Below, piece after piece: positions 2,041-33,202 of a DNA stretch of 64,000 nt. Made by a program: the position numbers and the translations under genes. The DNA is taken from assembly GCA_964358095.1 (NCBI GenBank), contig CAYHNW010000001.1, positions 71,108-135,107 on the forward strand, written 5' to 3'. The notes under the pieces are model-generated. The model had not been told where the DNA came from. It saw nothing but the letters and a program-made list of their open reading frames with translations, and made no database searches. Origin of the DNA: an uncultured Candidatus Peribacteria bacterium (GTDB taxonomy: Bacteria > Patescibacteriota > Gracilibacteria > UBA1369 > UM-FILTER-53-11). How positions within the stretch are numbered: position 1 is the stretch's first letter; each line of letters starts with the position of its first letter.

Positions 2041-3284
2041 ATGTCGGCTCCAAGTTTGCGCAATTTCTCGTCAAATTTTTCGTAACCGCGGTCAATGTAT
2101 TGGATGTCTCGCACCACCGTTTTTCCTTTTGCCACGAGCGCCGCCAAAATCATTGCGGCACCGGCTCGCAAGTCCCAGCTTTTCACTTCACAACCGGTAA
2201 GATGCGTGGGCCCGGCAATAAGCGCCTCATGCGGATTCTGCATTTTTATATTGGCGCCCATTTTCACGAGTTCCGGGAAATATCTAAATCTGCCTTCAAA
2301 AAGGGCTTCGTGAATGTGACTTTCTCCATTGGCCTGTGTTAAAAGCACCGCAAACGGCGGCTGTAAGTCGGTTGGAAATCCGGGAAATATATTTGTCTGC
2401 AACCTTTTGCACGCGGAAACTTTTTGCATAGGAAAAACTTTGACTGAATTCTTTGAAACTTCAAATTTTACGCCCATGTCGCGCAATAAATTCCACATTG
2501 GATCCAAATCGTGAGGTACGATATTGCGCACCGTTATTCCGCCTCCACTCAAAACCCCAGCCAAAACAAAAGTTCCGGCTTCCAAATAATCCGACCTAAT
2601 TTTGTAACCTTTCACTCCGCGTAATTTCTTTTTTCCGCGAATTCTCAGCGTATGAGTCCCAATTCCATAAATATCCACACCGATTGCTTCCAAAAATCTG
2701 CATAAATCTTGGATGTGAGGCTCAACGGCTACTAGTCTGATTATTGTTTCTCCTGTTGTGCGCGCCGCAGCCATAATCGCATTTTCTGTAGCAGTAACGC
2801 TAAATTCCGGCATCACGACATCGCGCGCCAAAGGTTTTCCGGCAAAAATAATTTCATCTTTCGCACTCGGCATTCTTTTTGCACCGAGTTTTTCTAAAAT
2901 ATATGTGTGAGTATCAATGGATCTGGCTCCAAGCACGCATCCTCCGGGATACGGCGAGTGTGCACGTCCGGTTCTGGCTAATAGCGGCCCGATCAACAAC
3001 ACTGAGGCACGCATTTTGCAGCACAAATGGCTTAGGATCTGGGTGTGTTTTATCGCATGTGTCCGAATGCTAACGGTGTGATTCTTGAATTCAACCTCAC
3101 TGCCAAGCGACTTTAGAATTCCCAGCATTGTGTGAATATCAGCAATATCCGGCACATTTATAAATGTGCATTTTTGATCCGTTAAAAGTGTTGCCGCCAA
3201 AATTGGCAGAGCGGCATTTTTTGAACCGCCGATCTTAACTTCACCGTGCAGCTTTTTTTCACCATTAATTACAAAACTTGGCAT
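2025..3284 (-). CDS. murA: UDP-N-acetylglucosamine 1-carboxyvinyltransferase
   Basis: 419 aa. N-terminus resembles GGSKNAALPILAATLL, with the catalytic-loop Cys in PGGCVLGARSIDTH. Full-length EPSP-synthase/MurA fold pattern. Confidence 0.95.
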   Translation of the reverse strand: MPSFVINGEKKLHGEVKIGGSKNAALPILAATLLTDQKCTFINVPDIADIHTMLGILKSLGSEVEFKNHTVSIRTHAIKHTQILSHLCCKMRASVLLIGPLLARTGRAHSPYPGGCVLGARSIDTHTYILEKLGAKRMPSAKDEIIFAGKPLARDVVMPEFSVTATENAIMAAARTTGETIIRLVAVEPHIQDLCRFLEAIGVDIYGIGTHTLRIRGKKKLRGVKGYKIRSDYLEAGTFVLAGVLSGGGITVRNIVPHDLDPMWNLLRDMGVKFEVSKNSVKVFPMQKVSACKRLQTNIFPGFPTDLQPPFAVLLTQANGESHIHEALFEGRFRYFPELVKMGANIKMQNPHEALIAGPTHLTGCEVKSWDLRAGAAMILAALVAKGKTVVRDIQYIDRGYEKFDEKLRKLGADIQRID

Positions 3285-3323
3285 GTGTCGCCTATTATAT
3301 CAGATTTACGCTATAATGCAGCC

Positions 3324-21930: not shown

Positions 21931-22038
21931 TGGTATCGCGTATGGGATTTGGTCACACGTCATTCCGCCTTAGCGGAATGCGCGCGACCCCGCCTCGGTA
22001 AGCCTTTTCTAAAGGCTTACCTCCGGCATTCAAACCCC
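21931..22038 (-). ncRNA. X-element copy B: structured element ending in a copy of the tRNA-Glu 3' end
   Basis: Reverse strand: GGGGTTTG AATGCCG GA GGTAAGCC-tttagaaa-GGCTTACC GAGGCGGGGTCGCGCGC ATTCCGC-TAAG-GCGGAAT GACGTGTGACC AAATCCCATACGCGATACCA. Homologous to 24173-24282 and 31785-31895. Confidence 0.6.
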
Positions 22039-22089
22039 AATACGGTTCTGTGGAGCCGCTTAGTGTTTACCGATTAAACGTATGTAAAT

Positions 22090-22166
22090 TGGTACCGCGT
22101 ATGGGATTTGAACCCATGATTTCCTCCGTGAGAGGGAGGCGTCCTAGGCCACTAGACGAACGCGGC
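22090..22166 (-). tRNA. tRNA-Glu (anticodon CUC), CCA encoded
   Basis: GCCGCGT TC GTCT AGTGGCCTA GGAC G CCTCC CTCTCAC GGAGG AAATC ATGGG TTCAAAT CCCAT ACGCGGT A CCA folds as a cloverleaf. Confidence 0.9.
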
Positions 22167-24032: not shown

Positions 24033-24108
24033 GGGTCGGTAGCTCAGTTGGTAGAGCAACAGCCTTTTAAGCTGATGGTCGCGGGTTCGATTCCCGCCCG
24101 ACCCACCA
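24033..24108 (+). tRNA. tRNA-Lys (anticodon UUU), CCA encoded
   Basis: GGGTCGG TA GCTC AGTTGGTA GAGC A ACAGC CTTTTAA GCTGA TGGTC GCGGG TTCGATT CCCGC CCGACCC A CCA. Confidence 0.92.
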
Positions 24109-24172
24109 AGAAAAATCACAATAGACGTTTTTATAGCACGCTAAAAAATAGAAGCGTTATTTGTGAAAATCA

Positions 24173-24282
24173 GGGAATCGAATGCCGTAGGAAAGCCTTT
24201 AGAGAAGGCTTTCCGAGGCGGGGTCGCGCGCAATTTTGCTAAGGCAAAATTGACGCGTGACCGATTCCCGCCCGACCCACCA
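24173..24282 (+). ncRNA. X-element copy A: structured element ending in a 21-nt exact copy of the tRNA-Lys 3' end
   Basis: GGGAATCG AATGCCG TA GGAAAGCC-tttagagaa-GGCTTTCC GAGGCGGGGTCGCGCGC AATTTTGC-TAAG-GCAAAATT GACGCGTGAC CGATTCCCGCCCGACCCACCA. The last 21 nt are identical to 24088-24108. Confidence 0.65.
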
Positions 24283-24285
24283 AAT

Positions 24286-24431
24286 AAGTGCGAGTTTTGC
24301 GGTCCGAGTGCAATGAGGCCGAGCTTCGTCGAGGCCGAAATGGCACGAGGACGCCGAACTGTAAAAATGCGCTTTAATTTGTAAAAAATTAGAAAGCATT
24401 TTTACGAGAGAGGCGAGCAAAACCCTCTTGA
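24286..24431 (+). repeat. Y-element copy 1 (about 146-nt non-coding repeat, homologous to 989-1135 reverse strand)
   Basis: See copy 2. It starts 3 nt after X-element copy A. ORFs 24163-24384 and 24199-24534 cross it, but their frames are not conserved in the other copy. Confidence 0.6.
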
Positions 24432-24539
24432 ACACGCTTCCCTCCCCCACCCCAAACTCTGACCACATCCGCATAGTCACGCTAGAGCTTTCTTGCGTAG
24501 CCACTTGCGTATCCAAACGGTTTTGATTATTCATAGGGT

Positions 24540-24983
24540 ATGGAACTACTCACAATTAACGAAGCGGCATTATTCTCCGGTAAATCTATCCAGACTATCC
24601 GCCGCATGATCAAGCAAAAGAAAGTAACCGTAAAACGCCAAAAAACCCCTCAGGGATTCAATTATTTGGTTATTAAAGATTCATTATTGGAATCTATAAG
24701 TCGGGCTAGCCAGACACCTACTCAAGCTGAGCCGATTATTCAAGAGGATACCCGAGAACACCGCCCTATCACGGAGGCCACTTCTCCGGATCTTGAGCAG
24801 GTATTCAGACGTGAAATTGGACAGTTTAATACGACTATTCAAAAGCTTGTTGAGCAGAATCAAAAGGACAAAGAAGGATTTTTCCAATTGATAAAAACTT
24901 TTCAAGATCGCGTCGTGGTTTTAGAGGATCAAATAAAGCAATTGGGAGCTCCTCAAGCATCTTGGTGGCAATTCTGGAAATAA
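24540..24983 (+). CDS. helix-turn-helix (excisionase/MerR-superfamily HTH_17-like) DNA-binding protein with coiled-coil tail
   Basis: N-terminus LLTINEAALFSGKSIQTIRRMIKQKKV. Confidence 0.65.
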   Translation: MELLTINEAALFSGKSIQTIRRMIKQKKVTVKRQKTPQGFNYLVIKDSLLESISRASQTPTQAEPIIQEDTREHRPITEATSPDLEQVFRREIGQFNTTIQKLVEQNQKDKEGFFQLIKTFQDRVVVLEDQIKQLGAPQASWWQFWK

Positions 24984-31784: not shown

Positions 31785-31895
31785 AGGGACATGCTGGGAT
31801 TTGGTCACGCGTATTTTTTGACTTAGCAAAAAATCGCGCGGCCCCGCCTCAGAAAGCCGCCGCTTGCGGACTCGGCTCCGGCATTCAAATCCCGG
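31785..31895 (-). ncRNA. X-element copy C: structured element ending in a decayed copy of the tRNA-Pro 3' end
   Basis: Reverse strand: GGGATTTG AATGCCG G AGCCG-AGT-CCG-caag-CGG-CGGCT TTCT GAGGCGGGGCCGCGCG ATTTTTTG-CTAAGT-CAAAAAAT ACGCGTGACC AAATCCCAGCA tgtccc. Confidence 0.55.
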
Positions 31896-31939
31896 AGTTT
31901 GTTGCACATCTAAAACTAGAGTTGTTCCAACTATAGTTT

Positions 31940-32016
31940 TGGTCGGGGTGCTGGGATTCGAACCCAGGACCTCTTGCTCCCAAAGCAAGCGCGCTAGCCA
32001 GCTACGCTACACCCCG
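31940..32016 (-). tRNA. tRNA-Pro (anticodon UGG), CCA encoded
   Basis: Reverse strand: CGGGGTG TA GCGT AGCTGGCTA GCGC G CTTGC TTTGGGA GCAAG AGGTC CTGGG TTCGAAT CCCAG CACCCCG A CCA. Confidence 0.92.
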
Positions 32017-32650: not shown

Positions 32651-33202
32651 ATGATTGACCTAGACAGGAAATCAGCCGGTAAAATACTCGGTGTCTCTGT
32701 GAGGACTATAGACAGATATATTAGAAGTGGCAAGCTCTTTGCGTATGAGCGGAGCGGCAGAATCTGGCTGAAGAAAGACGAAATTGCACGTTTTTCTCGC
32801 GAGAAAATGCCCGTGGTTTTACGACCAGTAGACAAGGAACGACGCAGTCCATCCGTGTCTACATTTGCCGCCAAATCTCAGGAAACGGATTTTTACAAAG
32901 ATCTGTACGAAGAGGCAAAGCGCGTGCTCACCGACTACCAGCAGAAGTTGGAACAGTCAAACTACAGAATCGGGCAGCTTGAATCTCAAACAACTCATCC
33001 AATTTCAATTCCAAAAACCACCGAGCGGTATGAAGATTCTGCGGCTCAAGAAATAATAAAGAGGGAACTTCATGACCGCGAACGTGAGCTTGCTCAATCA
33101 AAAGAACTTTTTAAACAAGAACGCGCAGGAAAAATAGCGTTCTCTATTTTGACGTATATATTGCTCGCGGCTATACCGTTGATTTGGTATTTACTGCGTT
33201 AA
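32651..33202 (+). CDS. HTH_17-like DNA-binding protein with coiled coil and C-terminal TM anchor
   Basis: SAGKILGVSVRTIDRYIRSGKL, and the C-terminal segment IAFSILTYILLAAIPLIWYLL. Confidence 0.6.
   Translation: MIDLDRKSAGKILGVSVRTIDRYIRSGKLFAYERSGRIWLKKDEIARFSREKMPVVLRPVDKERRSPSVSTFAAKSQETDFYKDLYEEAKRVLTDYQQKLEQSNYRIGQLESQTTHPISIPKTTERYEDSAAQEIIKRELHDRERELAQSKELFKQERAGKIAFSILTYILLAAIPLIWYLLR

Follow-up and report, generated by a model that had tools for sequence, protein, structure and literature searches.

In a 64,000-nucleotide stretch of an uncultured Candidatus Peribacteria bacterium (contig CAYHNW010000001.1, positions 71,108 to 135,107; hereafter called the window), five transfer RNA (tRNA) genes were found with ARAGORN and with Rfam, and three of them, namely tRNA-Lys(UUU), tRNA-Glu(CUC), and tRNA-Pro(UGG), are each followed on the tRNA strand by one copy of a structured element, which we call X (Table 1). 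The distance between the tRNA end and the first helix of X (P1) is 64 nt for tRNA-Lys, about 50 nt for tRNA-Glu, and 46 nt for tRNA-Pro, and each copy is joined to a duplicate of the 3' end of the preceding tRNA, which we call the tail. This arrangement had been put forward from the sequence alone, and the coordinates agree with that original prediction. Also as predicted, tRNA-Tyr and tRNA-Thr have no such element, and they have no duplicate of their 3' ends, either.

Table 1. Coordinates of the three X loci in the window and of their parts.
Feature	Position	Strand	Evidence or description
tRNA-Lys(UUU), intact	24033..24108	+	ARAGORN; Rfam tRNA, 77 bits
Left copy of direct repeat (last 21 nt of tRNA-Lys)	24088-24108	+	Repeat coordinates
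Spacer between tRNA-Lys and X, with hairpin	24109..24172	+	RNAfold, -16 kcal/mol, z -4.6
X core, Lys copy	24173..24261	+	Covariance model, 67.3 bits, E 8e-21
P1 5' strand, Lys copy	24173-24180	+	GGGAAUCG; followed by junction AAU
P2, Lys copy	24184-24219	+	Followed by GG
P3, Lys copy	24222-24262	+	
Tail, Lys copy	24262..24282	+	CGATTCCCGCCCGACCCACCA; equals tRNA-Lys positions 56-76, 21/21 including CCA
tRNA-Glu(CUC), intact	22090..22166	-	ARAGORN; Rfam
Spacer between tRNA-Glu and X	22040..22089	-	
X core, Glu copy	21952..22039	-	Covariance model, 61.7 bits
P1 5' strand, Glu copy	22031-22039	-	UGGGGUUUG; one G.U
P2, Glu copy	21992-22027	-	
P3, Glu copy	21951-21989	-	
Tail, Glu copy	21931..21951	-	CAAATCCCATACGCGATACCA; 20/21 versus tRNA-Glu 3' end; orthologous downstream flank comes next
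tRNA-Pro(UGG), intact	31940..32016	-	ARAGORN; Rfam
Spacer between tRNA-Pro and X, hairpin	31894..31939	-	z -2.2
X core, Pro copy	31804..31893	-	Covariance model, 59.6 bits
P1 5' strand, Pro copy	31886-31893	-	GGGAUUUG
P2, Pro copy	31846-31882	-	
P3, Pro copy	31803-31843	-	
Tail, Pro copy, decayed	31792..31803	-	Remnant CAAATCCCAGCA; 12 nt (C-AATCCCAGCA), 11/12 versus tRNA

All three window copies are folded by RNAfold into a common three-way junction, with z-scores of -7.9, -7.5, and -2.1. P1 is formed between 8 nt of the 5' edge of X and the first 8 nt of the tail; P2 is a hairpin closed by pairs between GCC (of AAUGCCG) and GGC (of GAGGCGGGG); and P3 is a long hairpin, the base of which (GGUCG/GUGACC) includes a G.U pair and continues into P1 with zero junction nucleotides between them. 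The sequence blocks once described as invariant and single-stranded are hence partly helical, given that GCC/GGC closes P2 and GGUCG/GUGACC makes up the base of P3. The tails follow the identity of the tRNA as proposed, completely in the Lys copy, with one mismatch in the Glu copy, and over a remnant followed by decay in the Pro copy; in this last copy, a G57-to-A change in the tail is compensated in P1.

X is not confined to the window. When one genome per species was scanned with the pattern GAATGCCG..GAGGCGGGG..GTGACC, at least 119 loci were hit; about 85 true copies were recognized among the matches listed, and the remainder were chance matches in high-GC genomes. Most of the true copies are labelled as Patescibacteria, or the candidate phyla radiation (CPR), including Saccharibacteria, WWE3, Gracilibacteria, Peregrinibacteria, Parcubacteria lineages, and others, and about 12 X-bearing contigs of metagenome-assembled genomes are labelled as non-CPR phyla, the taxonomy being that of the label. 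A covariance model (R1) was then built from 28 copies, all of which lie outside the window. In the 64 kb, this model matched only the three sites described above (E 8e-21 to 4e-18; the next match had E 0.08), and since a model made from other genomes finds exactly these three sites, their resemblance is not due to chance. Overall, the model detected at least 111 copies of X in 87 loci.

In the alignment of these 111 copies, 89% of the cells at paired positions are indeed paired, compared with 69% after shuffling and 35-43% with slid partners, and changes on both sides of a pair were observed in 637 cells against 190 expected. The covariation of the hairpins noticed in the three window copies accordingly holds for the family, as does that of the P1 5' strand with the tail: between the variable T-loop positions 59 and 60 and the nucleotides opposite them, covariation runs through each of the four Watson-Crick pairs. 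The conserved blocks of the family are GAAUGCCG, GAGGCGGGGUCG, and GUGACC. One G.U pair in P3 is kept in 107 of the 111 copies, and G.U outnumbers A.C in lower P3 by 137 to 4; furthermore, the strand in the sense of the tRNA folds more stably than the antisense strand in all of 88 copies examined, by 9.5 kcal/mol on average. From this strand preference and the excess of G.U in lower P3, the structure belongs to the tRNA-sense single strand, either as RNA or as single-stranded DNA (ssDNA). The fold of this strand is maintained by compensatory evolution: among the stem differences in 11 pairs of closely related copies, which include the orthologous pair L123/L124, 39 were compensatory double changes, 11 were single changes preserving a wobble pair, and 12 were disruptive.

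With Rfam 15 at the gathering threshold, only the five tRNAs were detected in the 64 kb, the families covered including tmRNA, T-box, RNase P, SRP, self-cleaving ribozymes, group I/II introns, and guide RNAs. Relaxing the threshold to E 10 gave no credible match to X, the best being one of 16 bits to microRNA models, and no ribozyme model matched it even then, which sustains the view that X belongs to no known RNA family. No published description of X was found in full-text literature searches, either. X is therefore real and widespread, and it matches no described RNA or mobile-element family; it is apparently undescribed. We also noticed variant or unrelated cores in the same position and with the same tail logic at L006 (after tRNA-Gly-GCC and tRNA-Pro), L011 (630-830), L004 (1853-1910), and L131; among them are a GAAGCGCG-type X, a larger core ("Y"), a 30-nt mini version, and an X with another base of P3 (GAGGCAAGCCUGCG). 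In addition, L074 has another core ("W", GAAGACC...) in the same scaffold 3' of tRNA-Arg. The superfamily is wider than the model R1 detects.

The association of X with tRNA genes extends over many tRNA identities. In the loci selected for X, it was found within 300 nt of 90 of the 161 tRNAs with room downstream, and the tRNAs carrying it represent 18 amino acids, with none seen for Asp and Met; one copy (L023) lies 3' of a gene for transfer-messenger RNA (tmRNA). The gap between X and the tRNA or tmRNA on the same strand is 7-90 nt, with a median of 47. This spacer usually contains a strong hairpin (z < -2 in 81%; folding energy dG of -10 or lower in 54 of 66) that ends about 8 nt (median) before X, and a U-run outside the folded stem is present in 3 of 66 spacers only; the sequence downstream of the tail is mostly unstructured.

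The edges of the duplicated tRNA segment are sharply defined. Its left edge is C56 in 76 of 79 pairs of tRNA and tail, right after the universal GGTTC, in place of which X has GTGACC, and its right edge is the gene's own 3' end, i.e., A76 where CCA is encoded and around C74 where it is absent; most of the repeats are 18-22 nt of identical sequence. Since the tail has no CCA where the gene has none, it copies the gene and not the mature tRNA. P1 includes positions 57-62 of the tail (tRNA numbering) almost always and 63-64 in about 70% of the copies, and tRNA specificity within X is confined to P1 and the tail.

We considered whether X and its tail are the remnant of a longer tRNA copy with an insertion in the T loop and rejected it; the identity to the tRNA is 0.91 at position 53 and falls to the background by positions 48-49. 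Also rejected was a mini-tRNA in which the spacer supplies the 5' strand of the acceptor, because such pairing holds for only two of 87 units (L074 and L038), no more than in shuffled controls. In the other 85 units, nothing pairs with the acceptor 3' strand of the tail, and X is therefore not a tRNA-like minihelix, nor does it have the acceptor-like stem of an external guide sequence. In the two units concerned (L074, 6304-6800; L038, minus strand), an upstream 9-mer (e.g., GTGCGGGTA) is the exact reverse complement of the last 9 nt of the tail, including N73 and C74; a GC hairpin and then P1 come after this 9-mer, so that the whole tail of this subfamily is paired.

As DNA, the unit composed of spacer, X, and tail is gained, lost, tandemly stacked, and occasionally misplaced. 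The window comes from a Peregrinibacterium, and the nearest relatives available for comparison are also Peregrinibacteria, with 65-68% identity to the window in DnaJ, in which the gene order of SLH protein, tRNA-Glu, DnaJ, ORF190, tRNA-Lys, HTH protein, and GDH is conserved. At the tRNA-Glu locus, X is present in the window, L123, and L124 and absent in L121 and L122; at the tRNA-Lys locus, it is present only in the window and L131 and absent in L121, L122/L143, and L124. Empty sites in related genomes, which the original prediction had suggested looking for, were thus found at both loci. The flank adjoining the tRNA at the empty sites is the one adjoining the tail at the filled sites, and a filled site is therefore an empty site plus spacer, X, and tail; an intact tRNA always lies 5' of the unit and the original downstream flank 3' of the tail. 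In L124, the repeat extends 6 nt beyond CCA. We also noticed that tRNA-Glu(CUC) is inverted among the relatives, lying on the minus strand in the window, L121, and L124 and on the plus strand in L122 and L123, with X, if present, on the 3' side of the tRNA.

Tandem arrays, such as a tRNA followed by two copies of X, were seen in L009, L039, L031, L024, and L114, and in L114, L009, L070, and L068 damage to the tail or core is greater in the distal copy, older copies lying distally. In L026 (7400-7560, minus strand), the open reading frame (ORF) of an EcoRI-type adenine methylase is cleanly split by an X unit that ends in 16 nt of a partial tRNA-Ser tail; the Pfam methylase profile continues across the junction (positions 249-345), CTCCA is found at both junctions, and a DUF262-like gene adjoins. 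Orphan units with no intact tRNA are present in L014, L103, and L032. Where loci were fetched without reference to X, four of 41 tRNAs were followed by it. Within one genome, furthermore, near-identical cores occur at different tRNAs; their spacers are unrelated, and P1 and the tail suit the tRNA in each case, as in L039 (Gly-CCC) and L057 (Arg-TCG) or in the Lys and Glu copies of the window.

In the window's own population, as represented by the Hainich groundwater contigs L151-L156, no strain-level gain or loss was detected, and all of these contigs carry the same copies. In L155 (2170-2260), a scaffold gap of N-run joins two 5' halves of tRNA-Pro(UGG) to one 3' end, spacer, and X, which explains an apparent difference of 79 nt; this junction has the look of a collapsed assembly at the shared repeat or of coexisting strains. 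Other small inserts were noticed at tRNA-Lys genes of metagenomic loci. L132 and L142 have a 55-nt hairpin insert with a 43-nt repeat beginning in the anticodon loop; in L149, the insert is 46 nt and its repeat runs from the variable loop; L133 contains an additional tRNA copy that is truncated at the 5' end and carries a hairpin of 25 nt within the T loop; and in L150 the gene breaks off after the T stem, where the downstream flank is joined to it. In the window itself, a structured insert unrelated to X ("Z"; 24283-24480, plus strand) lies 3' of the tail of the Lys copy, starting with GTGCGAGTTTTGCGGTCCGAG at 24288; its end lies close to a tRNA-Lys-like tail that has decayed (GCTTCCCTCCCCCACCCCA, 24436-24454). 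In the relatives L123, L136, and L138, this Z directly adjoins tRNA-Lys; in the window, the order is tRNA-Lys, X, and Z, and Z is the older insert.

No gene that might act together with X was recognized. The unit encodes no ORF, and neither an integrase or recombinase nor a recurrent family of neighboring proteins was found within 2.5 kb of the 111 copies, the largest family covering five loci. The window encodes no integrase, transposase, or reverse transcriptase; its genes are only for housekeeping functions and for two small helix-turn-helix proteins. The latter are excisionase-type (HTH_17) ORFs at 24540-24983 and 32651-33202, each less than 1 kb from an X locus, but the first of them is syntenic in relatives with no X, which makes a link to X unlikely. 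Scans for sigma-70 promoters and intrinsic terminators around the three window copies gave nothing informative, and no terminator or promoter consensus was found between tRNA and X in the window. A phage database gave no match to X, and pattern scans of IMG/VR gave, among the matches listed, one by chance (L001) and one true (L125). Given that X in L125 lies among housekeeping genes (GalE, CysE-like, and cytidine deaminase), its "viral" label looks doubtful; no tRNA or integrase is present in the 3.3 kb examined. L125 also contains a nest of three X copies or fragments (2850-3319), one of which is inside P3 of a variant X.

Taken together, X is best explained as the conserved part of an insertion unit that has no genes, measures about 150-200 bp, and lodges immediately 3' of tRNA and tmRNA genes of CPR bacteria. 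The unit consists of a hairpin spacer, a three-way junction of about 100 nt, and a copy of the tRNA gene from C56 to the 3' end; its P1 is formed by 6-8 nt at the 5' edge of the element together with positions 57-64 of the duplicated segment and varies with tRNA identity. We tentatively favor, with a probability of roughly 0.45, the idea that X is a trans-mobilized mini integrative element targeting tRNA and tmRNA genes, in which the single-strand fold serves as the recognition module. As to its mode of movement, we infer that the unit would undergo site-specific recombination with the T loop of a matching tRNA gene, with the crossover at or next to C56/G57, and would bring a replacement 3' end so that the tRNA survives. 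What is recognized would be the folded single strand, either ssDNA or a read-through transcript: the coaxial stack of P3 and P1 may form a pseudo-duplex mimicking the tRNA gene's T-arm, with conserved GUGACC replacing GGUUC and with P1 as the target-specific half. A recombinase or nuclease encoded elsewhere would then act in trans. In a bolder form of this idea, X would be a programmable mobile module with no protein gene, the P1 strand of which (6-8 nt, as RNA or folded ssDNA) picks a tRNA T loop by base pairing, the recombination being carried out by a putative CPR enzyme or by the RNA itself; we regard this form as unlikely.

An integrase-less element of this kind was one of the two hypotheses raised by the original prediction, and it is the best fit to the evidence at the DNA level, i.e., filled and empty loci, arrays, the tmRNA target, the interrupted methylase ORF, tails that copy the gene, and the lack of an integrase near the copies. 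Several observations nonetheless weigh against it. The prevalence of compensatory changes shows that resident copies are under structural constraint, which suggests a role in place, beyond the moment of insertion. An autonomous relative combining X with a recombinase was not found among the matches listed in the pattern-based scans of genomes, metagenomes, and viruses. In the outer pairs of P1, there is no preference for wobble (G.U 30 versus A.C 40). A circle carrying its own tRNA 3' end would wreck a new tRNA of different identity, and a simple circle therefore cannot explain the retargeting. Finally, slippage between 20-nt repeats could account for loss and duplication and microhomology for the single ectopic copy in L026, mimicking mobility, at least in part, with no dedicated machinery.

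Alternatively, X may be a non-coding RNA maintained by the host and made from the 3' trailer of the tRNA by co-transcription or read-through; the predominance of compensatory change even between orthologous copies, the sense-strand-specific fold, and the strong covariation speak for such an RNA. It might act as a processing landmark or, in connection with the tRNA 3' half, as a decoy, a sponge, or a spare part, having arisen by local duplication, with the core spread among tRNA loci by gene conversion and the tail kept identical by conversion between close repeats. The invariant G.U and G.A motifs are typical of tertiary or protein contacts of RNA; the lack of a terminator or promoter consensus between tRNA and X in the window is also in its favor, as is the lower frequency of X at tRNAs followed by another tRNA (8 of 28) than at others (82 of 133), and within a genome the core is shared but not the spacer. 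A trailer RNA is, however, difficult to reconcile with the patchy occurrence of X, including its absence in relatives of the same synteny, with the decay of tails while cores persist (the Pro copy and distal array copies), with the ectopic copy inside an ORF, and with the orphan units. In most spacers, moreover, the strong hairpin often has A/U-rich arms and is a potential transcription terminator, and the acceptor 3' strand of the tail is left unpaired. The second hypothesis of the original prediction, a co-transcribed RNA, gains in this way from the fold and its compensatory changes, but the part of it that invokes mimicry of the mature tRNA end loses ground, as tails have no CCA where the gene has none and the element is patchy. 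All considered, we think a trailer RNA somewhat unlikely.

A different RNA-based reading starts from the architecture of a scaffold with a variable end, as in the TnpB omega RNA or the IS110 bridge RNA: X would be the scaffold and the tRNA 3'-end segment the guide, with which a protein encoded elsewhere homes to tRNA genes, and the GGTTC beside the match in the tRNA gene, as opposed to GTGACC in the X locus, might mark non-self from self. The start of the match directly after GGTTC and the restriction of tRNA specificity to P1 and the tail would suit a guide, as would the distance of about 68 nt from the T loop to the insertion, which is reminiscent of the fixed offsets seen in RNA-guided transposons. 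However, P1 sequesters the start of the would-be guide, and tails are decayed in copies with intact cores; neither TnpB, IscB, Cas, IS110, nor another candidate effector was present near the 111 copies or in the window, and the guide-RNA families of Rfam were not matched, so that this reading appears decidedly improbable. We consider it very unlikely that X is a small catalytic or retro-mobile RNA, that is, a ribozyme cutting or joining at C56/G57 or an RNA copied back into DNA beside tRNA genes. A ribozyme would be in keeping with the compact and conserved three-way junction, in which the junction nucleotides are invariant and a G.U is kept; ribozyme models were nevertheless unmatched. The terminal redundancy of the tRNA segment recalls the R repeats of retroelements, and the insert in L026 begins with ACA, the same three nucleotides that follow the 3' end of tRNA-Ser at L046 in the same genome; no reverse transcriptase was nonetheless present near the copies or in the window, and the CCA-less tails speak against copying from mature tRNA. 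Least probable of all, in our estimate, is an origin by deletion, in which the tRNA and its displaced 3' fragment once flanked an ordinary prophage or island with an integrase and each copy is the scar left behind. Duplication of tRNA or tmRNA 3' ends is a hallmark of such islands (PMC9897764; 10.1101/2020.12.28.424599), and the other tiny inserts at tRNA-Lys with repeats from the anticodon or variable loop (L132, L142, and L149) might be seen in the same light. Yet more than 100 independent scars in many phyla would need to have kept the same spacer of about 47 nt and the same structured core of about 100 nt, covariation and sense-strand bias are unexpected for double-stranded att arms, and the full-length parent was not found among the matches listed in the pattern scans of genomes, metagenomes, and viruses. 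In sum, no cmscan match, no loss of covariation in the larger alignment, and no ordinary islands between the repeats were found, any of which had been named in advance as grounds for abandoning the original prediction.

A comparison of X with known systems is informative in this context. It has been reported that kilobase-scale elements leave fragments of tRNA genes and that newer insertions push older ones outward (PMC9897764; bioRxiv 10.1101/2020.12.28.424599). Islands and prophages at tRNA and tmRNA genes (tyrosine-integrase elements with T-loop sublocation, including Islander-type islands and tycheposons) share with X the 3' gene part as the target, the direct repeat from the T loop to the gene end, the regeneration of the tRNA, and the newest insertion next to it. 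X is, in contrast, only 150-200 bp with no ORF, integrase, or cargo, so that just 46-64 nt and X lie between the repeats in the window, and it has a three-way junction that covaries on one strand and uses the displaced tRNA fragment in one of its helices. Like cis-mobilizable elements (CIMEs) and MITEs (miniature inverted-repeat transposable elements), X has no genes, occurs patchily and in multiple copies, and presumably relies on an enzyme from elsewhere, and it is att-flanked and integrase-less, as is a CIME. A cognate autonomous element was not found among the matches listed in the pattern-based scans of genomes, metagenomes, and viruses or in the phage database. Unlike a MITE, X has no terminal inverted repeats of its own, since the sole inverted repeat is P1, which is made with the tail derived from the target and varies by tRNA, and it is flanked by a repeat of 18-21 nt that is set by the tRNA gene end instead of a fixed-length target duplication.

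Folded single-strand sites provide another parallel. In attC of integrons and attP(+) of CTX phage, as in X, the structure of one strand is conserved while stem sequences vary, mismatches (G.U and A.G) are conserved, arrays form at one site with the newest proximal, and the folded strand recreates, or in X would recreate, a duplex resembling the chromosomal target; X differs in having a three-way junction instead of a simple hairpin, in targeting the tRNA T loop, and in lacking the GTTRRRY of R/L boxes and a dif-like core. The ends of IS200/IS605 and the TnpB omega RNA share with X the strand-specific hairpins, the order of scaffold and then flank-derived sequence, and a short segment 5' of the hairpins that pairs with the element boundary, but X has no tnpA or tnpB, a clamp of 6-8 bp versus a 4-nt guide, no match to the model, and a duplicated flank. 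Compared with the IS110 bridge RNA, X has no adjacent DEDD recombinase and does not match the RNA model. Bacterial group IIC introns are likewise found a few nucleotides (a median of 8 for X) downstream of a strong hairpin following a gene, whereas X is about 100 nt with neither domain V/VI, an intron-encoded protein, nor an intron match in Rfam. By analogy, the systems nearest to X in the way they work would appear to be the integrative elements that target tRNA genes and the folded single-strand sites (e.g., attC and attP(+)), and X also has echoes of the guide-hairpin logic of IS200/IS605.

CPR bacteria constitute a large share of bacterial diversity with tiny genomes, and few mobile elements or regulatory RNAs have been recognized in them. 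X would be either a new class of mobile DNA that is gene-less, structure-dependent, and matched to its target or a new tRNA-linked RNA. For annotation, partial tRNA copies and "intergenic" blocks of about 150 bp in CPR genomes can now be modelled, and the presence or absence of the unit can serve as a strain marker. If the short P1 helix indeed sets the target, X would offer a compact and reprogrammable way of placing DNA beside chosen tRNA genes, and a module programmed by P1 would represent a new guide-directed integration system of viroid size.

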